Below, one piece after another: positions 6,420 through 23,602 of a DNA stretch of 32,000 nucleotides. The position numbers and the translations under genes were made by a program. Positions within the stretch are counted from its first letter, which is position 1. Every line of letters begins with the position of its first letter. Below the pieces are notes generated by a model, which worked only from the letters and a program-made list of their open reading frames with translations, had not been told where the DNA came from and made no database searches. This DNA is from Candidatus Electronema aureum (GTDB lineage: Bacteria; Desulfobacterota; Desulfobulbia; Desulfobulbales; Desulfobulbaceae), in assembly GCA_004284765.1 (NCBI GenBank), contig NQJD01000018.1, forward strand, positions 1-32,000. The letters run 5' to 3'.

Positions 6420-6526
6420 TTTGCAAGCGGGCAAGATATTTCCTTGACAGGTACCACGGGGGGGGGATAGCATTCACTTCAATCTAACGAATTTTACGCT
6501 TATAAAAGTTAAACGAGGAGCAAGCC

Positions 6527-7423
6527 ATGAAGCTGACGAAAAGAGTGATGATAGTCCCAGTTGCCAGCTTATTGCTGCTGAGTGGGTGTGCCAGCCGGGT
6601 CAGCCAGTTCAAGACTTTTGGCGAAACCGGAGCAAAGTATGTTGACACCATGAATAAGTTGCTGGGTGCGTCAGGCGAGGTCTCCATTGATGCGAGTTCT
6701 GCATTGCTCATTAATCAGCGAAGTAATGCGATTATCGGAGATGCTGGTAAAGCTTACGAAGAACTTAAAGAAAGCGACAAGCTAATGGACAATCGTTTGC
6801 AGATTCTCAACGATATTGCGGAGCATAATCAACAACTCAAGTTATACTTCAAGGCCCTTGCAGGCTTGGCAGGAAGCAATGCAGGCACGGAGATTGCCAC
6901 AGGCACCAAAAGCATAGTTGATGAACTCAGCAAGCTAAATCCAAAAATCTCCAAGGCAACACTTGGCGAGGCCCCTATTGGCAGCTTGGTCGGACCAGCG
7001 ACAGAATTGGTAGTCGCCAGTTTTCAGCAGGCTGCCTTGGAGAGGGAGCTTAAGACAAATGCCAAAACTATAGAGCGGGAGCTTGCGCTTCAGGTTGCAG
7101 CCATGCAAGCAGTTGCTACTATCTGGAAATCTGATCAGAAAATCATCATTGCAGGAAATAAGAAAATCAACCAAGAGCAGTTCCTTAAAGACAATGCACT
7201 GCCAAGGAATTGGGCAGCGAATCGGAAAGCTGTCCTGACAGCCAGCACCTCTGCCGAACTTGCAGATTCAGCAAGCGAGGCAGCCAGAAAGCTGAAAGAA
7301 GCGTTCGAGATACTGGTAAGCAAAGGAGATAAGGAAAAAGTTGAAAATATTCCGCTCATCGTGAATGACCTTAACAAGGTGCTGGATCTGATAGAGCTGG
7401 TCAAGAAAGGTCCATCTGCTTAA
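6527..7423 (+). CDS. alpha-helical lipoprotein, unknown function
   Basis: 298 aa with signal peptide and lipobox (MKLTKRVMIVPVASLLLLSG|C). SD acgaggag lies upstream. G+C is clearly lower than in core genes (23/60 in line 6721). Confidence 0.75.
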   Translation: MKLTKRVMIVPVASLLLLSGCASRVSQFKTFGETGAKYVDTMNKLLGASGEVSIDASSALLINQRSNAIIGDAGKAYEELKESDKLMDNRLQILNDIAEHNQQLKLYFKALAGLAGSNAGTEIATGTKSIVDELSKLNPKISKATLGEAPIGSLVGPATELVVASFQQAALERELKTNAKTIERELALQVAAMQAVATIWKSDQKIIIAGNKKINQEQFLKDNALPRNWAANRKAVLTASTSAELADSASEAARKLKEAFEILVSKGDKEKVENIPLIVNDLNKVLDLIELVKKGPSA

Positions 7424-7466
7424 GAATTCTCTTTAGTCAATCGAATCAATGCACAAGGTGAATAAT

Positions 7467-7799
7467 ATGGAATCGTCAAAAATTCGCGCGTTGACCATAA
7501 AGTGTCTTCACGAGGCAGTCCTTGAGATGATGTCTTTCGAGTGGCATGAGGAAGTCGCCAAGCTCCCTACAGCAAAAAGGAAGAAAGTCAGCCTGCTGGT
7601 ATTGGATTGCTTCAACTGGAAGGTCAAATTGGAGAACGCCCAGCTTGAGGCTATTCTTGCTCAACTCGAGGAAAATAAAGAGGCGTTAGAGGCCGGAACA
7701 AAGAAGGTGAATGAGGCCTTAAAGAATCTTAAACAGGTGAAGGATGTTCTTGACGCAACAAGCTCACTATTGAACGTCGTCGCCAGGGTTGTGGTGTAA
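7467..7799 (+). CDS. small coiled-coil hypothetical protein
   Basis: ORF track gives 7449..7799. I prefer ATG 7467 because aaggtg lies 7 nt upstream. The C-terminal half is heptad-like (LENAQLEAILAQLEENKEALEAGTKKVNEALKNLKQVKDVL). Confidence 0.5.
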   Translation: MESSKIRALTIKCLHEAVLEMMSFEWHEEVAKLPTAKRKKVSLLVLDCFNWKVKLENAQLEAILAQLEENKEALEAGTKKVNEALKNLKQVKDVLDATSSLLNVVARVVV

Positions 7800-7937
7800 T
7801 ATAGCCTGACTGCCCTTCCTCCCCGCCTTGCTCATCGCCTAGTTCAGCGGCATCCAGTGGGTGCTTATGTGCTGGGTAATGGCAAAGGCGGGGAAGTGAG
7901 AGAGCAGCGCATAAGTTCCAGCAAGTGCGACTGTTGA

Positions 7938-11211
<3,274 letters not shown>

Positions 11212-11228
11212 GGGAGGGTGCGGCTTGA

Positions 11229-11759
11229 TTATGCAGCTAATTTCCTCCTAAAGATGGATATAACTTTATCATCTGGCTGATCAGAAGGAATATCTATTGA
11301 TGTGATCATGCTTAACAGTTTAGGTTGAATCCCAAGAGAACAAGCTATGTCGACAGGTCGTATATTTAAGTGCTTTTCTTCTAAAAGATCAAGTGACCTT
11401 CGTATCAATGTTGGCCGCTCAATTGCTATTAAATCATCGTACCATTCACCTTTGGTCTGGCCGGACTTGTTCAGAAAAACATTAGCACTTCTATACTGAA
11501 GCGATGTGATTTTATCGAAGAAGTGAGCTTTGTATATTAAAGCCTTGACGCTCATGCCCCATCTTGTTTTCAGTCTGTATATTAAATCCCAGTTTATCCT
11601 CCCTCCTTTGAAGTCAGGAAATTCTTGTAAAAAAGCATTTCTTGGAAAAATAAATGCGCTTGCGAATCGGTCAGCTTCGCTCTCTGTAATATTGTCTCCA
11701 GTTTCCATGCCATCATGCAGAACGAAATGACCACACTCGTGCGCTATAGTATTTAAGTT
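11229..11759 (-). pseudogene. 5'-truncated ImmA/IrrE-family metallopeptidase
   Basis: The frame is open only from 11759 and reads NLNTIAHECGHFVLHDGMETGDN...EADRFASAFIFP. The HExxH motif lies at 11727..11741 and only 6 codons precede it, whereas family members normally have a longer N-terminal region. Low G+C (21/60 in line 11281). Confidence 0.7.
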
Positions 11760-11815
11760 TTAAATCAGTTGTGTTATAATTTATAACCTGAGAGGTTATT
11801 TTTTTATTTAACTAA

Positions 11816-11931
11816 TAGGAGTTACGCAGTTGAAATTAGAAATTCAATTATTACAGCAACTTGTTCTTTTGCCGCACAATTCTCCAGTTGAACAAAATCA
11901 ACGGGTTGCAAAACCAACTGCGTAACTCCTA
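11816..11931. mobile_element. MITE copy 1 (116 bp including flanking TA)
   Basis: Perfect 16-nt terminal inverted repeats taggagttacgcagtt ... aactgcgtaactccta, with TA at both ends. It is homologous over its full length to 12041..12156. Confidence 0.8.
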
Positions 11932-11992
11932 AAGAGTTTAAGCGTTTGCGTCGAGACGGTTTTCCAGACGATATAAAAACTGAAGTACTATA
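11932..11992 (+). mobile_element. fragment of IS630-type transposase 3' tail
   Basis: About 60 nt match 190..250 with 4 mismatches by eye. It reads KSLSVCVETVFQTI* in the tail frame. Confidence 0.7.
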
Positions 11993-12040
11993 TTTGTTGC
12001 TTGCAAAGTTCATGCCTAAGTTGCATCTTTTAAAAATTAC

Positions 12041-12156
12041 TAGGAGTTACGCAGTTGAAATGAGAAGCTCAACCATTACAGCAAGTTGTCTTTTTGTTGT
12101 ATAAATCGCCAGTTGAATCAAATCAACGGGTTGGCAATCGAACTGCGTAACTCCTA
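12041..12156. mobile_element. MITE copy 2 (116 bp including flanking TA)
   Basis: Same 16-nt TIRs and length as copy 1, TA-flanked. The internal sequence has diverged by roughly 15-20% by eye. Confidence 0.8.
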
Positions 12157-12317
12157 AATTACTTTAAATCACGGCAAGCTTACCAATGGTTGCGTTGCTT
12201 GCTTCTTGTAGTTTTTTGCAAAAACGTGATTTCCCAAGGCGAAAGCTACATTAATGTGAACCATTCTTCGCAAAGAATGCAGAGAGCAAAATTTGACCGC
12301 CCGCGCTGCAATCCTGC

Positions 12318-12343
12318 TTGACGATTCCAGCAGCGTGTATAAT
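12318..12343 (+). promoter_or_regulatory. candidate sigma70-type promoter for htrA
   Basis: Perfect tataat at 12338..12343 and ttgacg at 12318..12323, but the spacing is only 14 nt. An alternative -35 is tgcttg at 17 nt. It is followed by the leader hairpin aggaaag-n6-ctttcct. Confidence 0.3.
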
Positions 12344-12424
12344 GTAGAGTTGGCCGCAGGTCAGGAAAGGGAAGGCTTTCCTCCCTGCATATTTCACAAG
12401 CCTTCAACTCGTGGAGCTGCAAAC

Positions 12425-13903
12425 ATGATCTTCAAAAAGTACACGTTGACGCGACTGCAAATTATAGCCGCCGGTTTCATCTCCTGTTGCTTTATCTCGT
12501 TGTCCGTACTGCCCGTAGCCGCGCAGCAGGATGATATTCTCGCGCTGGAGCGTTCCGGTAAGGCGTTCACTTCAGTAGTGAAAAAGGCGGGGCCTGCGGT
12601 GGTCTATATCAGCGTAGAGAAAACCGTCAAAGGCGGCAAGCAGTTAGAAGACCTCTTCGGCGGCGACCCGCTCCTAAAGCGTTTCTTTGGCGAGCAGTTT
12701 GAGCAGTACCAGCGGCAGCAGCCACGTCGTCAGGCACCCCGACAGGAAGGCGCAGGTTCAGGCTTCATTATTGCTGAGGACGGTTTGATTCTGACTAACA
12801 ATCATGTGGTCGAAGATGCAGACAGTATCAAAGTCAAATTGGCGGACAAACGCGAATTTACTGCTACTGTAGTTGGCACTGATCCTCAGTCTGATGTTGC
12901 CTTGATCAAAATTGATGCAAAAAATCTACCTACGTTGCCGCTGGGTGACTCCAACGCGCTGGAGGTGGGCGAATGGGTGATCGCTATCGGCAGCCCCTTT
13001 GAACTGAGTCAGAGCGTGACTGTAGGTGTAGTTTCCGCTAAAGGTCGCAACCGAATTGGAATCAACGACTATGAGAACTTCATCCAAACTGATGCAGCTA
13101 TCAATCCTGGCAATTCCGGCGGGCCGCTGCTGAATATCAAAGGCCAAGCGATTGGCATCAACACCGCGATTTTTTCGCGTACCGGAGGCAGCATGGGCAT
13201 CGGCTTCGCCATCCCAATCAACATGGCCAAATCGATTGAGGAGCAGCTGCGTAGCAACGGTAAGGTTGTTCGAGGTTGGCTCGGCTTGATTATTCAGGAC
13301 ATGGATGATGGGCTAGCACAGTCATTCGGTGTGAGCAAAACTGAGGGTGTCCTTGTTTCTGAGGTTACTCCCGGTTCTCCAGCGGAAAAGGCTGGATTCA
13401 AGCAAGGCGATGTAGTTTTTGCGTTAAACGGCGCACCCCTAACTGACGTAAGCGACCTGCGCAACCGGATTGCAATGACCGCACCGGGTACGTCCGTCAC
13501 CTTAGACATTATGCGTGATGGAGACCGCCAGCAGATGAGTGTCTTGATCGCCGAGCAGCCTTCTGATTTCAGTGAAAGCGCAAAAATAAAGCTAAAGATG
13601 CAAAGCGGCTCTCTTTTAGACAAGCTGGGCCTGACCTTGCAGGATTTAACTTCTGATTTGGCTGCCCAGTTTGGCTACAGCAGCGGTCAAGGCGTGATTG
13701 TCACCGAAGTTGAGGCAGGGAGTCCGGCTGAAAGCGTGGGTATTGAGCCAGGCCAGCTGATTGAGGAGGCAAACCAAGTGCGGGTACACAGCTTGACTGA
13801 ATTGAAGGAAGCTCTGAAAAAAGGAAAGAATCCCAAACAGGTGCTACTACGGGTACGAACAGGCGAGTACAGTAAGTATGTAGCCCTCAAGTATGGTATG
13901 TAG
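12425..13903 (+). CDS. htrA: periplasmic serine endoprotease, HtrA/DegP/DegQ family with two PDZ domains
   Basis: Signal peptide MIFKKYTLTRLQIIAAGFISCCFISLSVLPVAAQQ from ATG 12425, with ggag upstream. Catalytic motifs TNNHVV and GNSGGPL are present, followed by two PDZ-like repeats. Confidence 0.9.
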   Translation: MIFKKYTLTRLQIIAAGFISCCFISLSVLPVAAQQDDILALERSGKAFTSVVKKAGPAVVYISVEKTVKGGKQLEDLFGGDPLLKRFFGEQFEQYQRQQPRRQAPRQEGAGSGFIIAEDGLILTNNHVVEDADSIKVKLADKREFTATVVGTDPQSDVALIKIDAKNLPTLPLGDSNALEVGEWVIAIGSPFELSQSVTVGVVSAKGRNRIGINDYENFIQTDAAINPGNSGGPLLNIKGQAIGINTAIFSRTGGSMGIGFAIPINMAKSIEEQLRSNGKVVRGWLGLIIQDMDDGLAQSFGVSKTEGVLVSEVTPGSPAEKAGFKQGDVVFALNGAPLTDVSDLRNRIAMTAPGTSVTLDIMRDGDRQQMSVLIAEQPSDFSESAKIKLKMQSGSLLDKLGLTLQDLTSDLAAQFGYSSGQGVIVTEVEAGSPAESVGIEPGQLIEEANQVRVHSLTELKEALKKGKNPKQVLLRVRTGEYSKYVALKYGM

Positions 13904-14049: not shown

Positions 14050-16170
14050 ATGGCCATTTCACCGGAAAAGCAGGCAGAAGGAAGAATTAAGAGCGTTGAC
14101 AATGCCATCACCCAGATTCACCGGCAGTTCGGTAAAGGTTCCATCATGCGCCTTGGCGCACATGAGCGGCAGAATATCCCGGTCATCTCCACCGGTGTTT
14201 TGGGAATTGATCTTGCTTTGGGCGTTGGTGGCCTGCCGCGTGGTCGGGTGACGGAAATCTACGGCCCGGAATCCTCCGGTAAAACCACATTGGCCTTGCA
14301 CGTCATCGCCGAAGCCCAGCGGATGGGTGGTAATGCCGCCTTTGTTGATGCCGAACACGCTTTAGACACCGCTTATGCTGAGAAATTAGGTGTCGATGTC
14401 GATAATTTGCTGGTCTCCCAACCTGATTTCGGCGAGCAGGCTTTGGAGATTTGCGAAATCCTGATGCGCAGCGGCGGGTTGGATGTCATTGTCGTCGATT
14501 CAGTAGCGGCTTTAGTGCCGAAAGCAGAAATCGACGGCAGTGTGGGCGACATGCACGTCGGCCTGCAAGCTCGGCTGATGTCACAGGCCATGCGCAAGTT
14601 CACAAGCGTCCTCCAACGAACCAACACAGTGTTGATTTTCATCAATCAAATCAGGATGAAAATAGGAGTAATGTTTGGCTGTTTCCACTATGATGCACGG
14701 GTGGTGCTTGCTGACGGAACCTCTGAAAAAATCGGCAAAATTGTCAATCAGAAGATGCCGCTTGAAGTCATGTCGTACAATGTGACGACGGGTGAGTTTG
14801 AACCTCGCCCAATTATTAACTGGTTTAATAACGGTCCAACTGAAACATTTCTCCAATTTACTGTGGATGCAAACAGCGGTAATGGGCATCATGCCTTTGG
14901 TTGTACTCCGAATCATCTGCTCCTTTCAGAGTACGGCTATAGACCAGCGGGAGAACTGAAGGCTGGCGACCGACTGATGACGATGGTTGAATACTATCTC
15001 TCGCCAATCCAAGAGCAGGTGGTTCTCGGTTCAATCCTTGGTGACGGTAGCCTGCGGCAGATCAGCGATTACAACACCGCACTCCGTATCGGACATGGGC
15101 AGGCGCAAGATGCCTACTGTTTGTGGAAACAGTCATTGTTCGAGGGGCTGATTGGTTCCGAGACAACGAATATGCGCGGCGGTCACAGCTTCGACACCAT
15201 CCCGATGTATGAATTAACAAAGCTGAGAGTAGAGAATTATGACGAAAAGGGTAAAAATCCTTCGCAAACACTGATTGACCGCCTTACACCTTTAGCCATT
15301 GCCGTCTGGTATATGGATGACGGCACCTTTGATAGCGAGCGACAAAATCGCTGTTCAATTTCCTGCCCAGGATTTCCGCTGGAGAAGCAGCAGGTCTTAG
15401 TGCGCTGGTTTCATGAGCGCGGAATTATGGCTACCCTGACGGCGCGCGGTTCCATCAATTTCGGTGTTCAGGAGACACCCAAATTCCATGCGATGATCGC
15501 CCGCTACATCCATCCGTCAATGGAGTACAAGCTCCTGCCGACTCTACGCGGACAGTTTGTCCAAGTTGAGGCTGCTGCCCAGCGAACTCTGCAAGCCGTC
15601 CCTATGCCAATTCTCGACATCCACGAAAAGCCTGAGACCCGTGGCATGAACCGTTTCGACTTGGAAATCGACGGCAATCATTGCTATGTTGTCGATGGGG
15701 TGGTAGTTCACAATTCTCCAGAAACCACCACCGGCGGCAACGCGCTTAAGTTTTACAGCTCCATTCGTCTTGATATCCGGCGATTAGCCCAGATTAAGGA
15801 TGGACAAGAGGTGATTGGCAATCGGACCAAGATCAAGGTAGTCAAGAACAAGGTCGCTCCACCGTTCAAGGAGATTGAATTCGACATCATCTATGGTGAG
15901 GGCATTTCCCGCAGCGGCGACCTGCTTGATCTGGCAGTGGAGAAAAACATTATCGACAAAAGCGGTGCTTGGTACGCTTATCAGGATGAGCGTATCGGCC
16001 AGGGCCGTGAGAACAGCAAGAATTTCCTCAAGGAGCATCCTGAGATGCTGTTGGAAATCGACCAGAAAGTACGCCAGAGTTATGCCTTACCGACTGGAGC
16101 AGCGGCATCATCTGTAGAGTACGTCCCGGAAGATGAGTATCCAGAAGATTTGGACAACACAGCAGACTGA
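14050..16170 (+). CDS. recA: recombinase RecA precursor containing an intein
   Basis: The exteins (aa 1-210 and 556-706) are colinear with RecA: Walker [10 protein letters not shown], then ...[12 protein letters not shown] | [24 protein letters not shown] 345-aa insertion lies between them. Confidence 0.95.
14680..15714 (+). mobile_element. RecA intein with LAGLIDADG homing-endonuclease domain (345 aa)
   Basis: It starts with Cys ([13 protein letters not shown]), has block B GCTPNH (TxxH), LAGLIDADG motifs [10 protein letters not shown] and [12 protein letters not shown], and ends VVHN followed by Ser +1. G+C is lower than in the exteins (27/60 in line 14761). Confidence 0.9.
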
Positions 16171-16781: not shown

Positions 16782-17504
16782 ATGTGCGTCACCACCAAGA
16801 AGGTTGTTCTATTCAGCGTACTGTCCCTGTTTATCAACGCGGCAGTCTGCAACATGTCTGAAGCAGCTGGTAAACCTGAAGTAAAGGTGCCAGAGGCTAC
16901 CGCACCGCAAGGAAGCGGACAGGTTGAGCCGATTGCCGCAGCGGAGAAGAAGGTCGAAGTTACTGACGCATCTTTCCGCTGTCTTCATAAGATGACCAAA
17001 GTGGGCAACATGTATGTTGACAATCTGCTTGGTGATCTTGAAGGAACACTTGCTGTTGCCAAGTCTTCTGCTGGCGGAGTGTATCCTGCTGGCTCGGTTG
17101 TGCAACTCCTTCCCACCGAGGTTATGATCAAGCGGGAAAAAGGAGCTAATGATGAGACTAATGACTGGGAATTCTTTGTGTTAGAAGTTTCACCAGAAGG
17201 CAGCAAGATCAAACAGCGTGGCTTCAATCCACCAGTGAAGAATATGTTAGGAAGCTGTATTTCTTGTCATAAGCAGGTGGCACCGCAAGCGGACATGGTT
17301 TGCGCGGCAGGTCAAGGCTGCCCGCCCATCGTTTTTCCGGGTGGTATCGATAATGCAAAGCTGATCTCGGCCCTGCAAAAGACAGACAAACGCTGCCCTT
17401 CTCCTGAGCCGCCCACCCCAGAAGAGATGGCAGAGTTGATCAAGCTCAAGAAAATGCTTGAAGCGCAGGCAGCAGCAGCAGCAGCAGCCGCTGGTCAGCC
17501 ATAA
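16782..17504 (+). CDS. secreted c-type haem protein, cytochrome P460-like
   Basis: Strong SD aaggag. It has a signal peptide, a single CxxCH (GSCISCHK) preceded by NDWEFFVLEV...GSKIKQRG as in P460-family proteins, and a poly-Ala C-terminal tail. The family call is by recognition. Confidence 0.6.
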   Translation: MCVTTKKVVLFSVLSLFINAAVCNMSEAAGKPEVKVPEATAPQGSGQVEPIAAAEKKVEVTDASFRCLHKMTKVGNMYVDNLLGDLEGTLAVAKSSAGGVYPAGSVVQLLPTEVMIKREKGANDETNDWEFFVLEVSPEGSKIKQRGFNPPVKNMLGSCISCHKQVAPQADMVCAAGQGCPPIVFPGGIDNAKLISALQKTDKRCPSPEPPTPEEMAELIKLKKMLEAQAAAAAAAAGQP

Positions 17505-17596
17505 CCGTAACATCCAACGCAGGCGGAACGTAGCGTTTCGCCTGTGTTGCAGGCTCTTTCCCCGCCAGAACCCATTTCCCCCACCTATTTGTTAAT

Positions 17597-18262
17597 ATGC
17601 CCAGCAAGAGAATTGCTGTTATTCTGTCCGGCTGCGGTCATCGTGACGGCTCAGAAATCCACGAAGCCACGCTGACCCTTTGGGCCATTCACAAGCACAG
17701 AGCCGAGTATCAATGCTTTGCGCCGAATGTGCTGCAACATCATGTGCTGAACCATCTCACCGGCGAGGCAATGCCAGAGCAGCGCAACGTGCTGATCGAA
17801 TCCGCCCGCATCGCTCGCGGTAAGATCAAGGACTTAGCCTTGTTTGATGCCGCTGCCTTTGATGGCTTGGTTATTCCCGGTGGAGTTGGGGCAGCCAAGA
17901 ATCTCTGCACCTACGCCTTTGATGGCGCAAACTGCACGGTCAACCCAGACGTGGAGCAGGCGATCATCGCCATGCACAAGATAGGTAAGCCCATTGGTGC
18001 GCTTTGTATTGCCCCGGTTATTCTGGCTAAAGTCTTGGGCAAAGTAATTGTCACTGCTGGACAGGACGCAGCCACTGCAGCGGATATCAGCGCAATGGGC
18101 GGCTGTCATGCACCCACGTGGCAGGGAGAGATCATCGTTGATCGGGATAACAAGATCGTGACTGCGCCTTGCTATATGCTCGATTCTCGGCTTGATCAAA
18201 TCAGCATAGAGACTGACAAGGTAATCGAGGCATTGATAGGCTTGATGGAGCCGAGCGCATGA
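17597..18262 (+). CDS. elbB: DJ-1/PfpI-superfamily protein ElbB (glyoxalase / isoprenoid biosynthesis-associated)
   Basis: 221 aa with KRIAVILSGCGHRDGSEIHEATLTLWAI...GLVIPGGVGAAKNL...GALCIAP, typical of ElbB. Confidence 0.85.
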   Translation: MPSKRIAVILSGCGHRDGSEIHEATLTLWAIHKHRAEYQCFAPNVLQHHVLNHLTGEAMPEQRNVLIESARIARGKIKDLALFDAAAFDGLVIPGGVGAAKNLCTYAFDGANCTVNPDVEQAIIAMHKIGKPIGALCIAPVILAKVLGKVIVTAGQDAATAADISAMGGCHAPTWQGEIIVDRDNKIVTAPCYMLDSRLDQISIETDKVIEALIGLMEPSA

Positions 18263-18678
18263 AGAAGAGTCCCGCGCAGCTGTCCGATATCTTCACCTGT
18301 ACCCGCTGTGGTTATTGCTGCCAAGGCGAGACCACGGTTTCGCTTGACCAAGAAGATCAGGCGCGGATGATGGCGGAACTCGGCCTGAGCCGCGAGGAGA
18401 TGGAAGAACAATACTGGCGCGTGACTGAAGGCGTAGTGCAAATGCGAATCGTTGATCATCACTGCATTTTTTATACCGCAGAGAGCGGCTGCGCAGTGCA
18501 TGAAGGCCGTCCTTGGCGATGCGGGCAGTGGCCACTGCATCCCAGCATCTTGGCCGATGAAGACAACTTCCGCACCATCCGTGAATCCTGTCCTGGTATC
18601 AATCAAGAACTGAGCTGGGAGCAGTTCTGTGGGGTCTTCCGGCTGCTGCTGGAACAGGACAAGCGATTGCTCTGCTGA
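18259..18678 (+). CDS. YkgJ-family Cys-cluster (CxxCxxCC) protein
   Basis: FTCTRCGYCCQGE and the later HHCIF...GCAVHEGRPWRCGQWP. ATGA overlap with the elbB stop. Confidence 0.8.
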   Translation: MKKSPAQLSDIFTCTRCGYCCQGETTVSLDQEDQARMMAELGLSREEMEEQYWRVTEGVVQMRIVDHHCIFYTAESGCAVHEGRPWRCGQWPLHPSILADEDNFRTIRESCPGINQELSWEQFCGVFRLLLEQDKRLLC

Positions 18679-18705
18679 ACAAATGCAACTTCAACGAGAT
18701 TCTGC

Positions 18706-19566
18706 ATGGGACAAACTGTCATCCTTTTCCTCGCAGCCAACCCGGACGGCACAGTCTGTCTGCGTGTTGATCGGGAGATCAAAAAGATAGAGCAAGGTCT
18801 GCGTGTTGCCGAGCAGCGCGACTGCTTTGTCTTCAAGACCTGTCAGGCTGTGACTGTGCCTGATCTGCGCCGGGCCATGCAGCAGCACAGGCCGCAGATC
18901 GTCCATTTCAGCGGACACGGCGACGGTGCGGCAGGGTTGTGTTTTGAGAGCGGGCAGGGCAAAATCCAGTTCGTTCAAGACGAAGCTCTGGCAGCCTTTT
19001 TCAGCATGTTTTCCGCCGAGGTGCGCTGTGTTGTCCTCAATGCCTGCTATTCCGAGGTGCAGGCTGAAGCCATTGCCCGGCATGTTGATTATGTGATCGG
19101 CATGAGCGATTCCATTACCGATCAGGCGGCAATCGCCTTTTCTGTTGCCTTTTATGAAAGTCTTGGCAATAGTGAATCTATTGAATCCGCCTACAAATTC
19201 GCCTGCGCTGAAATAGCCCTTCTCGGCCTGAAAGAAGAGCATATTCCCAAGTTGATCCGCCGCCATGCGGCTGAGGAACGGAACATCGTGCAACCCTTTG
19301 TCAAAAGCGAGATTGAACATATCCAGCGGCTCGTTGCGGAAGACAAGCTCGAAAAAGCTCTGGCCGAATTTTTGATTTTCGCCGCATCAGCCGATGCAGA
19401 GATAAAGCAGGAGGTGATCGTGCATCAGGCGGCACTGGCCAAGGCAGGAAAAGAGCGGCGGAAAGGCTTGATGGATACTGACAAGGAAGAGCAGATGCGG
19501 AATAAGGTTCGTTATGCGCTGCTGGAACTGCTGAACGAACAGGCGGCGCGGCAGTTTGAAAATTAA
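18706..19566 (+). CDS. short CHAT/caspase-fold protease fused to a C-terminal helical adaptor-like module
   Basis: ILFLAANPDGTVCLRVDREIKKIEQGL...RPQIVHFSGHG (His71)...VRCVVLNACYS (Cys114)...AAIAFSVAFYESLG is the compact CHAT pattern. Residues ~206-278 are homologous to the next ORF. Confidence 0.8.
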   Translation: MGQTVILFLAANPDGTVCLRVDREIKKIEQGLRVAEQRDCFVFKTCQAVTVPDLRRAMQQHRPQIVHFSGHGDGAAGLCFESGQGKIQFVQDEALAAFFSMFSAEVRCVVLNACYSEVQAEAIARHVDYVIGMSDSITDQAAIAFSVAFYESLGNSESIESAYKFACAEIALLGLKEEHIPKLIRRHAAEERNIVQPFVKSEIEHIQRLVAEDKLEKALAEFLIFAASADAEIKQEVIVHQAALAKAGKERRKGLMDTDKEEQMRNKVRYALLELLNEQAARQFEN

Positions 19567-19583
19567 GCTGACAGTTTTCCCTT

Positions 19584-19862
19584 ATGCCTGCGGCAAATGA
19601 CATAAAAGAACGGCATTCAGAAGTGCAGATGCTGTTTGCTGAGGACAACATCAACGAAGCCGTCAAGCGGCTCATGGATTTTGTCCGTGATTTTTCGCAG
19701 GATAACAGTGACAACTTGAACGAGGTGATTGTCATCAGCAGCAGTTTTAGCCGATTAGAGAAGGCGGAACGACGTGGGACGCTCAGTTATGACGAGGTGG
19801 ATCAGAAACGAAATAAGCTGCTGTATCAGGCTCTCGATCTTATGGAGACTGTCATCGCATGA
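19584..19862 (+). CDS. stand-alone helical module (92 aa) homologous to the CHAT protein C-terminus
   Basis: My hand alignment of aa 14-89 to CHAT aa 206-278 gives 22 identities in 73 columns with one 3-residue gap. Shared strings are Q-L-AED, EVIV, R-G and Q-RNK--Y--L-L. The stop overlaps the next start (ATGA). Confidence 0.6.
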   Translation: MPAANDIKERHSEVQMLFAEDNINEAVKRLMDFVRDFSQDNSDNLNEVIVISSSFSRLEKAERRGTLSYDEVDQKRNKLLYQALDLMETVIA

Positions 19863-21115
19863 ACAAGGAGCAGGCAATGCAGGGTATTGAACAGGCTGCC
19901 GCAGACCTTCGTGCCGCTATTGCCAGCAATCCCGGAGAGCACGGCACTGGTCTGGTGCAGTTTGCTAACACATACGCCTTGAAGAGCAGTCAGCGGCATT
20001 CTGCGGTTCTTCTCAAGCTAAACTGGACCAAAGCAGCGGACGAGGAGCAGCAGCATCGTGTTCTCCAAGACATGCTGGCCTTGCTTGAGGAAATTGTTGC
20101 CGACTCTGCCAGCGGCACGGCGGGCGGGGAGCCGCCGCTGAACCAACTCATTGTCCGCGCTCAGGAACATGTTCCTGAGCCGCCGCATGATGTAGTTTTC
20201 AGCTGCGAAAATCTCGGCAAAACCTACAAAAAATCCGGTTTTCAGCTCAACGGCGTGAATTTGCAGCTTCGCTTCGGCGAAATCACCGGCGTGGTCGGCG
20301 AGAACGGCAACGGCAAAACCACGCTGTTCCGCATCGTTGCCGGTGAACTGCTGCATGATCAGGGCAGCATCGCATATCCGCTGTTCGGTCAGGACAGCGC
20401 GGCAAAAAAGGGCATCAACTGGATCAAAGTCAAGGAGCAGATTGCCTATGTGCCGCAGGAGCTGCCCAAGGTGTATGGCAAATTAGAGGAGATGCTTCAG
20501 TACGAGGCCGCCATTCACGGCATCCGGGGCAAAAAAAATCTGCGGGAAGTGGATTTCATTGTCCAGCGGCTGGAACTGAGCGAGCACTTGGAAAAACGCT
20601 GGAAAGAGCTGTCCGGCGGCTTCAAGCTGCGTTTCGCCTTAGCCTGCGCCTTGGTCTGGAAACCCAAGCTGCTAATCATTGACGAGCCGTTGGCCAATCT
20701 TGATTTCAAGGCCCAGCAGGTGGTGCTAAGAGATTTGCGCAATTTGGCGGAGAGTCTGCGCTATCCCATGTCTGTGCTGATTTCCTCTCAGCATTTGCAC
20801 GAGGTTGAGGCGATTTCTGATCAGATCGTCTTCCTTGACAAAGGCAAGGTTGAATTCAACGGGCCGAAAGAGCAGCTTGGCGAGGAACGCCGTTGCAACA
20901 CCTTTGAGATGCTGGTGTCCTGCAAAGAGGAAGAACTGCGTGAGCATCTCCGGCGGCTTGCGCCGCAGCGGATTCAGCATTCCGGGGTTTCTTATGTGGT
21001 CACGCTGCCGCTGGCGGTGGATGGAAGTAGGCTGCTGCGGCATCTGCTGGAATGCGGCGTGGAGGTGGAATATTTCCGGGACATCAGCCGGTCAATCAAG
21101 CAGTTGTTTCATTAA
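19859..21115 (+). CDS. ABC-type ATPase with ~110-aa N-terminal helical extension and C-terminal accessory domain
   Basis: Walker A GENGNGKT (aa 147-154), signature LSGG (251-254), Walker B LLIIDE (271-276) and H-loop His312. It has no transmembrane segments. The N-terminal 110 aa are not part of the ABC fold. Confidence 0.85.
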   Translation: MNKEQAMQGIEQAAADLRAAIASNPGEHGTGLVQFANTYALKSSQRHSAVLLKLNWTKAADEEQQHRVLQDMLALLEEIVADSASGTAGGEPPLNQLIVRAQEHVPEPPHDVVFSCENLGKTYKKSGFQLNGVNLQLRFGEITGVVGENGNGKTTLFRIVAGELLHDQGSIAYPLFGQDSAAKKGINWIKVKEQIAYVPQELPKVYGKLEEMLQYEAAIHGIRGKKNLREVDFIVQRLELSEHLEKRWKELSGGFKLRFALACALVWKPKLLIIDEPLANLDFKAQQVVLRDLRNLAESLRYPMSVLISSQHLHEVEAISDQIVFLDKGKVEFNGPKEQLGEERRCNTFEMLVSCKEEELREHLRRLAPQRIQHSGVSYVVTLPLAVDGSRLLRHLLECGVEVEYFRDISRSIKQLFH

Positions 21116-21132
21116 TTGGCAGAGCATTTACG

Positions 21133-21918
21133 ATGATTCCTATTTTTTTCAAGAAATTGGATCAGAATTTGAGGGTGAATTATCCGATAGTTTGGCGGAC
21201 GCGAATTCACTATTTTTTCTGGTATCTTTTAATACTTTTAATGTTGACTTTCTTAGCGAAATTATTTAATTCAAATAAGCTGGATTTTTTATATAAATCA
21301 AAAGGAAATCAAGAACTTTGCATGATTATATTGACATTTCTGTCAATCTTTGTACTGCATCCGTTTTATCATCCAATCGGTGACAATCGATTAGTTAAAT
21401 GTATTTTTACTACATTATGCTATAGTTTATGTTTTTTTTCTATGTCGTCAATTATGATCCTGACCATATTACCACGTATAGATTTGTCATATTATATTTT
21501 AATAAATATATCTACGGCTTTAATAGTTACAGTTTCTTCGTCACTTAGAAGAATAAGCGATGACAATATGAAGATTTTATCTTCGTGTTGTTTAAGTGTA
21601 ATTTTTTTGTTTGCTTTCATGTTCATGATTTATTACATAAACGATACAACAATAAAATATAAATATAGTTATATATTTACAATACCTTTGATTACAATGT
21701 TTTACATTGCATTATTTATCGTTTTATCGCGACGCATCGCATCTTTTGTATTTATGTTTTTAACATTCTTCATTCTTATTTTCTTTTTATTGATTCCAGA
21801 GAATTTCTATTTTTTTTATCCAGCGGAAAAATTGAGAGTAATTTATCTGTTTATAGCATTCAATACTATGATTGCTTTTAAAGTGCTGATTCGATATATA
21901 TACTGGCCAAAGCCGTGA
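21133..21918 (+). CDS. polytopic membrane protein (7-8 TM), extremely AT-rich gene
   Basis: 261 aa from ATG 21133; the track start 21052 overlaps the ABC gene out of frame. Hydrophobic segments run throughout. G+C is 13/60 (21241..21300) and 12/60 (21601..21660) by hand count. The stop overlaps the rlmH GTG start. Confidence 0.7.
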   Translation: MIPIFFKKLDQNLRVNYPIVWRTRIHYFFWYLLILLMLTFLAKLFNSNKLDFLYKSKGNQELCMIILTFLSIFVLHPFYHPIGDNRLVKCIFTTLCYSLCFFSMSSIMILTILPRIDLSYYILINISTALIVTVSSSLRRISDDNMKILSSCCLSVIFLFAFMFMIYYINDTTIKYKYSYIFTIPLITMFYIALFIVLSRRIASFVFMFLTFFILIFFLLIPENFYFFYPAEKLRVIYLFIAFNTMIAFKVLIRYIYWPKP

Positions 21919-22379
21919 GATTCATCCTCCCCTTCCTCGGCAAAACCAAGGAAAGCTACCTTGATCACGGCATCCGCGACTACGCCGAACGCCTGCGCCG
22001 CTACGTGCCGGTGGACATCAAGGTGCTGAAAGAGCCAGGCAAAAATGAGCCGGATGCGGTGCTCATGGCCCGCGAGGCGGATTTGCTGCTGAGTCAGGCT
22101 GCCGCAGCTTCTCTGCTCGTGGCCCTTGATCCGGCTGGCCGCGAGCAGACCTCAGAAGATATGGCCGCTGCTTTAGAAAGCTGGGAAAGCCGAGGTCTGC
22201 ACACTATCTGCTTTCTCATCGGTGGCCATCTTGGCTTAGACCCGCGTGTACGCCAGCAGGCCAACGCACTTTGGTCGCTCTCCCGCCTCACCTTCACCCA
22301 CGAGATGAGCCGCTTCATCCTGATCGAGCAGCTGTACAGGGCCTGTTCGATCAAGGCCGGACACAAGTATCATCGATAA
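21915..22379 (+). CDS. rlmH: 23S rRNA (pseudouridine1915-N3)-methyltransferase RlmH
   Basis: 154 aa, colinear with E. coli RlmH from residue 1 (MRFILPFLGKTKESYL...FLIGGHLGLD...LSRLTFTHEMSRFILIEQLYRA...HKYHR). GTG start. Confidence 0.9.
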   Translation: MRFILPFLGKTKESYLDHGIRDYAERLRRYVPVDIKVLKEPGKNEPDAVLMAREADLLLSQAAAASLLVALDPAGREQTSEDMAAALESWESRGLHTICFLIGGHLGLDPRVRQQANALWSLSRLTFTHEMSRFILIEQLYRACSIKAGHKYHR

Positions 22380-22381
22380 GA

Positions 22382-23602
22382 CTACACTTCCCCGCGCAGC
22401 ACTGGCGAAATGATCTCATAGACCTGTTCCACGGTGATTGCCTTTAGGCATTGGTTGTCTGTGCAAGGAGTCTTGCGGTGATTAGCCGCGCTCACACAAG
22501 GCGAACAAGCTAATCCAGCAAAGATAGGCGTGGAATTGCCAAGCGAGCCGTACAGCTTCGGTGTTTCTGGGCCAAAGAGGACAAAGGTAGGCAGCGAGGT
22601 GATAGACGAGAAATGGCCAGGTCCAGAGTCGTTCGTCACCATCAAGGCGGCAATGCTATAGAGCAGCGGCAACTGTCCCAGCGTCACTGCCCCAGCAAAA
22701 TTACTGCAACGTGGATGATTGACACTGAGACGCTGTTGCTCTGCCTCTGCATGTTCTGCGGGCGCACCGGTGATCAAGACCAGCGTATCCGGGGTAGTAA
22801 TCAAGATGCACTGCATCAGCTTGATGTACCGCTCTGATGGCCAGCGGCGCTGCGGCAGCATCTCGCTGGCGTTAGGGTTAATCAGCACTAATCGGTGCCA
22901 CGTGCGATCATAAGCAGGATAATGCCGCGCCACCAATTCGTGCATTGCCGCCAGCTGCTGTTCGGTGAAGCTGACCAATGGTAGGCTGATTTCTGCATCG
23001 TTGATCGTTTGCTTGGAATACGGCAGCTCTGGCGTATCTGCCAGCAGACTGTTGACCAAGGCGATGAAATTCTTGGCAATATGCTGATGCGGATTATACG
23101 CCACCCGATGCGTAAGCAGCTCGCCCCGATATAAGCCCTCGTTGCAAAAGCGGTAAAAACCCACCCGGTTGACGGCTCCACTTGCACCGGTGAGTAGGGC
23201 GGTAAAGCGCGAGAACAGCTCCAGATCAATCACTGTGTCGATCTGGTGTTGCCGTGTCCAACGCAGGAAACGCAGGGTGTCCCAAGCCAAGGTAACAAGG
23301 TTGTCTTCACGCAACGTAAACACGTTCGCGGGCGGGATGGTGCCGGTGAGGTCAAGACTAGCCCGGTTATGAGCGAAGATAACGAAAAATAACTCCGCGT
23401 CGAACTGCTGCCGGGCTTTGCGCAAGGCTGGATCAGCTAAGATAGTTGATCCCATCTCAGACAACTCGATGAAGAGTATCTTCTTTGGCAGCAGCTGCGG
23501 GCTGCGCAGAACAGCCTCTCTCAGCTTCACCGCAACGGTAAGGAGAAAGGTCAGCGGGATACCTATCCAGCGATCCACTGCACGCATGGTGTCAACATTC
23601 AT
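22382..23602 (-). CDS. glycosyltransferase family 9 (heptosyltransferase-like)
   Basis: 406 aa with KKILFIELSEMGSTILADPALRKA at the N-terminus and TNDSGPGHFSSITSLPTFVLFGPETP near the C-terminus, typical of GT9. Confidence 0.85.
   Translation of the reverse strand: MNVDTMRAVDRWIGIPLTFLLTVAVKLREAVLRSPQLLPKKILFIELSEMGSTILADPALRKARQQFDAELFFVIFAHNRASLDLTGTIPPANVFTLREDNLVTLAWDTLRFLRWTRQHQIDTVIDLELFSRFTALLTGASGAVNRVGFYRFCNEGLYRGELLTHRVAYNPHQHIAKNFIALVNSLLADTPELPYSKQTINDAEISLPLVSFTEQQLAAMHELVARHYPAYDRTWHRLVLINPNASEMLPQRRWPSERYIKLMQCILITTPDTLVLITGAPAEHAEAEQQRLSVNHPRCSNFAGAVTLGQLPLLYSIAALMVTNDSGPGHFSSITSLPTFVLFGPETPKLYGSLGNSTPIFAGLACSPCVSAANHRKTPCTDNQCLKAITVEQVYEIISPVLRGEV

Follow-up and report, generated by a model that had tools for sequence, protein, structure and literature searches.

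Several prokaryotic conflict systems are built around a nucleoside triphosphatase (NTPase) that is coupled to its effectors by effector-associated domains (EADs). The described subsystems are vWA-MoxR/VMAP, iSTAND, GAP1 GTPase and AP-GTPase (Kaur et al., eLife 2020, PMC7159879; eLife 2021, PMC8195603), and the adaptor logic of EADs was set out by Kaur, Burroughs, Iyer and Aravind in the same two papers. We analysed a 32,000-nucleotide (nt) stretch of DNA from Candidatus Electronema aureum (assembly GCA_004284765.1, contig NQJD01000018.1, positions 1 to 32,000 of the forward strand; hereafter the window) and a cassette of four genes within it. These encode a CHAT protease ending in the adaptor domain EAD11 (gene 1), a stand-alone EAD11 (gene 2), an ATP-binding cassette (ABC) ATPase (gene 3) and a polytopic membrane protein (gene 4). 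The four open reading frames (ORFs) encode 286, 92, 418 and 261 amino acids (aa), all on the plus strand, and the ORF list agrees with the limits given by a first-pass annotation made from the letters of this DNA. With moderate confidence, we read the cassette as an NTP-dependent, adaptor-coupled conflict module (immune or programmed-death) whose core would be an ABC-2/ABCA-like ATPase with a dedicated polytopic membrane protein.

The cassette has much in common with the systems of Kaur et al. A small helical EAD is present on the core NTPase component and again on the effector of a neighbouring gene, the effectors are interchangeable (caspase/CHAT, TIR) and one component diversifies rapidly. 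The hosts are mostly multicellular or filamentous bacteria, and EAD11 is one of the EAD families of those authors. The cassette differs from their systems in its NTPase, a transporter-type ABC ATPase with a membrane partner in place of a MoxR AAA+, STAND or GTPase, and in having three EAD11 subtypes in one operon with a free adaptor in the middle. We classified these subtypes with in-house hidden Markov models (HMMs) as S (solo-like), E (effector-like) and X. An ABC ATPase with a membrane partner is a core that is not among the subsystems of Kaur et al., and the term "ABC" is absent from the main text of both papers. EAD11 is absent from the 2020 text (PMC7159879) and appears in the 2021 supplement (PMC8195603) only at the C-terminus of leucine-rich repeat (LRR)/AP-GTPase/COR proteins. 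Our full-text literature searches returned no description of an ABC-centred EAD11 architecture, as the first-pass annotation had supposed; such a description may exist elsewhere in the literature or in database notes.

We assessed the identity of each protein. Gene 1 matches the CHAT family (PF12770) with 37.8 bits against a cut-off of 24 and EAD11 (PF19964) with 55.1 bits against a cut-off of 26 over residues 202-278. Gene 2 matches EAD11 over residues 11-88 with 56.9 bits (same cut-off) and is 28% identical to the C-terminus of gene 1 (BLASTP, E 1e-9). The CHAT assignment made at first reading is thus supported by Pfam, and the helical module seen at that time in both proteins corresponds to a curated family. 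Orthologues of gene 2 in four other loci (L001, L004, L006 and L008) are 61-87% identical to it. The closest solved relative of gene 1 is a CHAT domain-containing protein, PDB 8TL0. In the alignment HFSGHG pairs with HFIGHG and LNACYS with LNACCT, and a uniform numbering shift of 20 residues places His71 and Cys114, the dyad proposed earlier, on H375 and C422 of the SAVED-CHAT protein of Haliangium. We presume that 8TL0 is this protein, since the offset fits, the molecule name agrees and the entry is multi-chain; its accession is absent from the preprint. The H375A/C422A double mutant of Haliangium SAVED-CHAT is inactive, and the protease is turned on by oligomerisation and filament formation (Steens et al., bioRxiv 10.1101/2023.06.23.546230).

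Gene 1 is closest to the CHAT domain of SAVED-CHAT, with His and Cys aligned, and activation by oligomerisation is the principle that we propose for gene 1 as well. SAVED-CHAT belongs to a type III-B CRISPR/CBASS-like module of Haliangium ochraceum, whereas gene 1 lacks a SAVED domain and has neither a cyclic-oligonucleotide synthase nor a CRISPR context. Its recruitment would proceed via EAD11 and not via a nucleotide ligand.

Gene 3 matches ABC_tran (PF00005) with 89.6 bits over residues 130-279. In an alignment of 41 family sequences the Walker A residues (G147..K153 T154), Q200, the LSGG signature (S252-G254) and D275-E276 are invariant and H312 is nearly so (90% or more), which bears out the earlier reading of an intact set of ABC motifs. 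The AlphaFold model has a predicted local distance difference test score (pLDDT) of 89.6. In it, a four-helix N-terminus is followed by a linker helix, then by the nucleotide-binding domain and last by a C-terminal alpha/beta domain, which has conserved columns at Y405, R407, S410 and S412. The top matches by PDB sequence and by Foldseek are ABCA1/3/4/7, TM_1403, NosF and PmtCD, and the full-length fold matches that include both the nucleotide-binding and the C-terminal domain are 4YER and NosF. Among NCBIfam models, PQQ_ABC_ATP, GldA and DrrA rank highest, each far under its cut-off. By sequence and model, the nucleotide-binding domain is predicted to be of the ABC-2/ABCA (type V exporter) type and catalytically complete. 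Proteins of Electrothrix and Desulfobulbaceae are 84-97% identical to gene 3.

Gene 3 is like the ABC-2/type V exporters and ABCA proteins (ABCA1/3/4/7, NosDFY, PmtCD and T. maritima TM_1403) in its best matches and intact catalytic motifs. It is unlike them in carrying an N-terminal EAD11-like module and having no evident substrate, and its membrane partner is without an ABC2_membrane match, ranges in length from about 250 to 800 aa and is tandem-duplicated. In BceAB-BceS, FtsEX and the type VII MacB/LolCDE systems, ATP-driven movement signals to or activates a partner enzyme and does not serve nutrient import, which is a conceptual likeness to the cassette. BceAB appears among the fold matches of gene 3 at rank 41 (Foldseek). 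The cassette lacks the periplasmic domain of FtsX/MacB and a histidine kinase partner, and its membrane protein shows no homology to the membrane subunits of these machines. Through its P-loop and signature, gene 3 also weakly matches the PADLOC components AriA (PARIS), PtuA (Septu), GajA (Gabija), LmuB (Lamassu) and mad3/mad8 (MADS). These systems pair soluble OLD/SMC-like ATPases with nucleases, whereas gene 3 is a canonical ABC_tran protein with a membrane partner. We rejected the assignment of gene 3 to PARIS, Septu, Gabija or MADS because the matches span the generic P-loop and signature only and the partner genes are absent.

The N-terminus of gene 3 would carry the link to the adaptors. 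The first-pass annotation had recognized a helical extension here, for which four helices are modelled, and had missed its EAD11-like nature. A Pfam scan of gene 3 gave no EAD11 match, and residues 1-115 are without any match. We built a profile of the module, which we call X, from 77 sequences and compared it with hhalign. It scored 94.95% (E 4e-8) against the EAD11 profile and 95.6% (E 1.3e-8) against S-type EAD11, with reversed-sequence controls at E 0.04-0.3; S-type against E-type scored 98% (E 1.5e-13). Searches with gene 2 (phmmer) weakly retrieve the N-termini of X-type ABC proteins. Direct fusions point the same way: the gene 3 homologue P0089 has precomputed matches to both PF19964 and PF00005, and the homologues P0109, P0084 and P0090 begin with an EAD11 motif, RLLDFVxDFS, close to that of gene 2. 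On these comparisons, the N-terminus of about 110 aa is probably a divergent EAD11. Since X aligns with EAD11 profiles, all three soluble proteins of the cassette would carry an EAD11-type module.

We asked how widely this arrangement recurs. A scan of one genome per species gave at least 577 candidate ABC relatives, of which the best 80 were analysed; the architecture counts given here cover 84 loci, cited by number. Relatives of the system are found in several hundred species-level genomes, annotated generically as "ABC transporter ATP-binding protein" or "hypothetical protein". The gene order is common to dozens of genomes from several phyla, and the arrangement of the cassette is therefore not due to chance. 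Candidatus Electrothrix laxa encodes CHAT-EAD11, solo EAD11, ABC and a membrane protein of 490 aa; an Escarpia endosymbiont encodes EAD11-TIR, solo EAD11, ABC and a membrane protein of 591 aa; and a metagenome contig (L002) encodes solo EAD11, ABC and a membrane protein of 571 aa. The four genes co-occur in the same order outside the source genome, including in E. laxa and in the metagenome-assembled genome (MAG) UBA5173. The hosts of the 80 analysed include Bacteroidota (Saprospiraceae, Microscillaceae, Lewinellaceae, Chitinophagaceae), cyanobacteria (Nostoc, Okeania, Crocosphaera, Xenococcus), Chloroflexia, Gemmatimonadales, Polyangiaceae, sulfur-oxidising symbionts and Desulfobulbaceae.

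The adaptor modules follow a rule across these loci. The ABC protein is X-type in 40 of the 84 loci, and an S-type EAD11 gene lies directly 5' in 39 of the 40 by script call; in the exception, L030, an S-type ORF of 96 aa lies just 5' and overlaps an over-extended ABC ORF call. In 32 of the 84 loci an S module is fused to the ABC N-terminus, and none of these 32 has an S gene 5' (39/40 vs 0/32, Fisher p 1e-19). The ABC N-termini of the remaining 12 loci resemble shortened S-type modules by eye only, so that an EAD11 or EAD11-like module is detected by HMM on the ABC protein in 72 of 84 loci. Seven X-type loci have no stand-alone gene, and their 5' S module forms part of a TIR or caspase protein; Pfam on five of these seven fusions found TIR_2 in four and Peptidase_C14 in L084. 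We take S to be the bridge because it is fused to the ABC protein where E-type effectors lack a solo gene, fused to effectors where the ABC protein carries X, and free where X and E are both present. The role of adaptor that had been suggested for the solo module fits this rule and the seven TIR/caspase loci with the same EAD11 subtype. The suggestion that the ABC ATPase is the NTPase core fits equally, as it is the component that carries X or fused S.

We conclude that the genes very probably form one functional EAD11-coupled system. The opposite view, that CHAT-EAD11 and a solo EAD11 only accidentally adjoin an unrelated ABC transporter operon, has next to no probability left and is effectively refuted by the comparative data: the gene order holds across phyla, EAD11 and ABC are directly fused, and the rule above is significant at p about 1e-19. 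The overlap of genes 2 and 3 also speaks against accident. As the first-pass annotation had reported, the stop of gene 2 and the start of gene 3 share ATGA (19859-19862), an overlap that we read directly in the sequence, and 17 nt separate the stop of gene 3 from the start of gene 4.

The enzymatic parts of the EAD11-tagged effectors vary between loci. CHAT effectors occur in the window, L004, L006, L067 and L068. TIR effectors are identified by Pfam in L001, L008, L010, L029, L035, L044, L049 and L060, and by TIR-like sequence only in L055, and L084 has the Peptidase_C14 effector. EAD11 effector copies adjoin the core in 23 of 84 loci. The E-type EAD11 genes are located 5' of the solo gene, as in the window, or 3' of the membrane gene, and their products carry CHAT (Nostoc), TIR or unknown domains. 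The E-type modules are 59-67% identical between CHAT and TIR proteins with unrelated catalytic parts; that of gene 1 shares 59-60% identity with the EAD11 of the L001 and L008 TIR proteins. The EAD11-tagged effectors (CHAT, TIR and caspase) are interchangeable between loci.

Five further E-type EAD11 proteins were seen at L047 (9949-10701), L064 (10637-11308), L080 (10114-10896), L075 (9871-10335) and L076 (15885-16376). The hosts are mostly cyanobacterial; L075 is from Chloroflexia and L076 from Cytophagales. The C-terminal 70-170 residues of the L047 and L064 proteins have no Pfam match, and the L047 and L080 proteins end in a hydrophobic AAPxLTI motif. The C-termini of the five proteins are possible new effector domains.

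Gene 4 is identical (100%) to the E. aureum hypothetical protein CDV28_11821 and has no match in Pfam, NCBIfam or PADLOC. Hydropathy gives eight hydrophobic segments, in line with the 7-8 transmembrane (TM) segments counted at first reading, and the AlphaFold model is all-helical. For gene 4 and 18 relatives, Pfam at E<=1 gave scattered single matches and no consistent family. What is conserved in the membrane family is an N-terminal domain (N-domain) with the consensus PxFLxxxDxxLLxNxPxxWRTRxHY and a short C-terminal motif, RYxYWP. An exhaustive phmmer search of gene 4 against 1.84 billion representatives gave 10 weak matches, all within residues ~1-110 to 1-160. Word-indexed searches gave 2 significant matches with the full-length alignment and 0 with the N-domain alignment, few because hydrophobic low-complexity words swamp the candidate list. 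With an iterated HMM, the N-domain was found in 73 of 86 sources (85 locus records and the window). It occurs once or twice per protein and is duplicated internally in 18 of 99 membrane-family proteins. A gene of this family lies directly 3' of the ABC gene in 69 of 84 loci, and 13 of 84 loci have 2-7 tandem membrane paralogues. Tandem arrays behind a single ABC gene were seen in L014 (9259-17209), L015, L016, L017 and L021-L024, in Saprospiraceae, Microscillaceae and unclassified Bacteroidota MAGs.

Comparison of the window with L006, the UBA5173 locus, shows how differently the membrane gene evolves. The CHAT, solo and ABC proteins are 93%, 87% and 96% identical, and the membrane proteins 33% over 105 residues only. 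The DNA is 94.5% identical over 18711-21116, ending at the stop codon of gene 3. At its start, gene 4 can still be aligned with the UBA5173 membrane gene for ~90 nt (76% identity over 66 nt). Identity returns for about 107 nt, which take in 38 nt at the end of the membrane gene and 70 nt at the beginning of rlmH. The intervening island (21117-21900) is compositionally distinct: the guanine plus cytosine (GC) content of gene 4 is 27.4% (29% at third codon positions), against 48-59% in the flanking genes, and the island coincides with the gene between neighbours of 55-60% GC. Per 100-nt interval, the GC content runs 0.61, 0.36, 0.23 into gene 4 and 0.26, 0.59 out of it. The ORF is intact; the probability that stops are absent by chance is 3e-9, and 11-33 stops occur in the other five frames. 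As a low-GC island lies between conserved ends and the ORF is intact, the body of gene 4 appears to have been replaced and yet to be under selection, which suggests a swap by recombination between the conserved ends. By these measures the membrane gene is the fastest-changing part of the system, and gene 4 is a short, compositionally foreign member of its family.

These features bear on an alternative in which genes 3 and 4 are an ordinary ABC-2 exporter of a lipid, peptide or drug, and CHAT is a docked processing or quality-control enzyme as in peptidase-containing ABC exporters, with no role in conflict. The nucleotide-binding domain is of the transporter type, nearest to ABCA, NosF, PmtCD and DrrA/GldA-like ATPases, the JGI label of relatives is "ABC-2 type transport system ATP-binding protein", and the context in the window and around most loci is housekeeping. 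We nevertheless consider an exporter quite improbable. At many loci the place of the docked enzyme is taken by TIR, a domain that does not act in processing; the system has no conserved neighbour that encodes a substrate, a bacteriocin or a biosynthetic function; the membrane partner matches no permease family and is swapped or duplicated at a rate unusual for a transporter; and EAD11 has so far been seen only in conflict-type architectures.

A role of the system in conflict or cell death is, on the domain and locus comparisons above, probable. We propose the following sequence of events. Two gene 3 ATPase subunits would sit on the cytoplasmic face of the gene 4 protein, contacting its N-terminal amphipathic helix and its C-terminal RYxYWP motif. 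The variable membrane part would sense a perturbation, such as a phage attacking the envelope or some other insult to the membrane, and this would alter the ATP-driven closing of the two nucleotide-binding domains. Closing would bring the two N-terminal X modules together, and these would nucleate the S-type EAD11 of gene 2, which in turn would recruit and cluster the E-type EAD11 of the CHAT protease. Clustering would activate the protease by induced proximity, as in the oligomerisation of SAVED-CHAT and of TIR enzymes, TIR being the effector in sister systems. The active protease would then cleave cellular targets, leading to growth arrest or death of the affected cell of the filament. The induced-proximity details are drawn by analogy and are offered tentatively, at somewhat less than even chances. 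A more specific version, in which the ABC protein and its hypervariable membrane subunit, exchanged between loci and duplicated in tandem, are a membrane pattern-recognition receptor whose closure nucleates the X to S to E chain of death-fold-like adaptors and switches on caspase-like or TIR effectors, is possible and, on balance, doubtful. If true, it would give multicellular bacteria a membrane-anchored counterpart of receptor-adaptor-caspase signalling.

The membrane proteins might themselves be the effectors. They would then be membrane-disrupting or pore-forming proteins under ABC control, EAD11 would be the input from EAD11-tagged sensors or signalling proteins of this or another locus, such as LRR/AP-GTPase/COR-EAD11 proteins, and CHAT and TIR would be parallel or upstream components. 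Most loci hold a solo EAD11, an ABC gene and one or more membrane genes with no enzymatic effector nearby, which this explanation would account for, as it would for the tandem arrays of 2-7 membrane paralogues. EAD11 is moreover known on ROCO-like GTPases, its only carriers published so far, and a gene with Roc/COR-A/COR-B matches (ROCO-like GTPase; L040, 10624-12687, minus strand) adjoins an EAD11-ABC locus. TIR, CHAT and caspase are, on the other hand, typical terminal effectors in EAD systems (PMC7159879, PMC8195603). The conserved ends and variable core resemble a diversifying receptor more than a conserved killing device, and the proteins have no similarity to known pore-forming effector families in PADLOC or Pfam. 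On this balance we regard membrane effectors as improbable.

Several observations weigh against our proposal of an adaptor-coupled conflict module with an ABC-membrane core. PADLOC v2.0 has no system that matches the cassette; it gives generic matches for genes 1 and 3 and none for genes 2 and 4. At the level of domains, module X compared with E-type EAD11 alone is not significant (hhalign, E 0.029), and X appears tied to EAD11 only via the S type. We infer the physical complex of the ABC and membrane proteins from their conserved adjacency alone. No similarity of the membrane family to ABC-2 permeases or ABC2_membrane could be detected (Pfam, E<=1), and the AlphaFold model of gene 4 (pLDDT 56.6 from an 11-sequence alignment) is too poor for a fold search. 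Most loci, for example those of Saprospiraceae, have no enzymatic effector near the solo EAD11, ABC and membrane genes; there the effector gene may lie at another place in the genome, or the core may have another output. The genomic surroundings are a further point. In the window the cassette is closely set within an operon-like string of housekeeping genes, and the start of rlmH, at 21915, overlaps the stop of gene 4. In the flanks of 80 loci, 148 genes gave 205 Pfam families, overwhelmingly housekeeping.

The defence or conflict-type matches among these 148 genes are limited to one PIN and three Roc/COR. We therefore rejected the idea that the system is seated in defence islands generally; since the flanks are mostly housekeeping, island context is not general evidence for defence. 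A phage-borne origin was also rejected, with one weak match in 2.9 million viral contigs. The position of the cassette is variable among close relatives. In three related Desulfobulbaceae genomes, two of named cable bacteria and the UBA5173 MAG, it occurs in three different contexts. The window copy lies between ykgJ-like and rlmH. The UBA5173 copy adjoins TelA, XpaC-like, VWA and AF2212-like genes. The E. laxa copy (L004/L007, 1-6500 and 10782-17235) is flanked by a DDE transposase, HsdM, PDDEXK_2, a HepT/Pol-beta (HEPN-MNT) pair, an AAA_15/AAA_21 ATPase with DUF3696 and GmrSD_N, flanks that appear defence-island-like, unlike the context of the window.

In the UBA5173 locus (L006, 10690-10800), about 70 nt of the rlmH 5' end (VKFILPFLGKTKESYLDQGIRD) follow the locus's own membrane gene of 483 aa, and the AF2212-like gene comes next. 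The cassette seems to have moved from a window-like, rlmH-adjacent site and to have carried the rlmH fragment along.

Distribution and context also bear on the possibility that the system serves filamentous bacteria as a housekeeping switch in development or membrane stress, for example for the sacrifice or remodelling of damaged cable-bacterium cells, and is not directed at invaders. The hosts are indeed largely filamentous or multicellular (cable bacteria, Saprospiraceae, Microscillaceae, Nostoc, Okeania, Chloroflexia, Polyangiaceae), the system is embedded among core genes in the window, and its near-absence from viral contigs would suit such a role. Set against this are the patchy distribution, the three positions in three Desulfobulbaceae genomes, one of them a defence-type island, and the swapping of effector and membrane genes, which is typical of arms-race loci. 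We give a developmental switch little credence.

If the proposed conflict role holds, ABC transporter-like machines would join STAND, AAA+ and GTPase switches as cores of caspase/TIR immune or death systems, and sensing would take place in the membrane, the site of phage entry. The system lends itself to experiment, with four small genes and clear point mutants (C114A, K153A/E276Q). From the natural series of architectures (split S and X, fused S, effector-S fusions) one can predict the adaptor pairs that bind, so that the idea of bacterial EADs as death-fold adaptors, with its animal parallel, becomes directly testable. The coordinates of the genes and their parts are collected in Table 1.

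Table 1. Features of the four-gene cassette, in window coordinates
Feature	Position	Strand	Evidence
Gene 1, CHAT caspase-fold protease with C-terminal E-type EAD11	18706..19566	+	Pfam CHAT 2e-9, EAD11 7.5e-15; PADLOC chat model 6.5e-18; PDB 8TL0 4e-18
CHAT domain, gene 1 residues 21-162	18766..19191	+	Pfam stretch
Catalytic His71, gene 1	18916-18918	+	Aligned to 8TL0 HFIGHG
Catalytic Cys114, gene 1	19045-19047	+	Aligned to 8TL0 LNACC
E-type EAD11, gene 1 residues 195-285	19288..19560	+	In-house EAD11 HMM 8e-27; class E, score 103
Gene 2, stand-alone S-type EAD11, 92 aa, putative bridging adaptor	19584..19862	+	Pfam EAD11 2.1e-15; class S, score 134
Gene 3, ABC ATPase: module X, nucleotide-binding domain and C-terminal alpha/beta domain	19859..21115	+	Pfam ABC_tran 3.5e-25
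Module X, predicted divergent EAD11, gene 3 residues 3-84	19865..20110	+	hhalign; AlphaFold helices 3-23, 25-39, 43-58, 62-84
Nucleotide-binding domain, gene 3 residues 112-340	20192..20878	+	Family alignment; model secondary structure
Walker A Lys153, gene 3	20315-20317	+	Invariant in family alignment
C-terminal alpha/beta domain, gene 3 residues 346-418, motif YFRDISxSxKxLF	20894..21112	+	AlphaFold model
Gene 4, polytopic membrane partner, 261 aa, ~8 TM	21133..21918	+	Membrane-family HMM 7e-50 and 1e-8; N-domain 4.8e-22
Conserved N-domain of the membrane protein: amphipathic helix FFKKLDxxLRxxYPIVWRTRIHY and first TM helices	21133..21465	+	phmmer, iterated HMM
C-terminal motif LIRYIYWPKP of the membrane protein, overlapping the rlmH start at 21915	21880..21918	+	Protein alignment; DNA near-identical to L006

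The immediate neighbours of the cassette in the window are those named in the first-pass annotation. Pfam supports an ElbB-like gene (DJ-1/PfpI, a weak match) and a YkgJ-like gene with a CxxCxxCC motif on the 5' side, and RlmH, a SPOUT methyltransferase, on the 3' side. The rest of the window is core genome by Pfam, with GlnD, GlnA, MutS, HtrA, an intein-bearing RecA, RNase G and MurJ. A promoter and terminator scan of 17300-22600 found no informative site within the cassette.

Syntenic flanking ORFs surround the fused EAD11-ABC gene in L045, L050, L052 and L058, which are Bacteroidia/Bacteroidota MAGs. The census of flanking genes contained four HtrA-like Trypsin_2+PDZ matches that were not mapped to loci, and this layout is probably their source; if so, it would point to vertical inheritance in a housekeeping context there. 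The window also has an HtrA-like gene (12293-13903), about 5 kb 5' of the cassette, and its resemblance to that layout is probably a coincidence.

Two more lower-GC stretches occur in the window, at 6500-8000 (0.46) and 11000-12500 (0.40-0.43), against about 0.55-0.63. They are positioned between glnA and mutS and between mutS and htrA, respectively, and carry ORFs without a Pfam match (6527-7423, plus strand; 11229-11708, minus strand). The recA gene (14050-16170, plus strand) is split by an intein with a LAGLIDADG homing-endonuclease domain. Its product matches RecA over residues 14-210, LAGLIDADG_2 over 323-468 and RecA_C over 623-678 (Pfam), and the splice-junction motifs Cys and His-Asn-Ser are visible.

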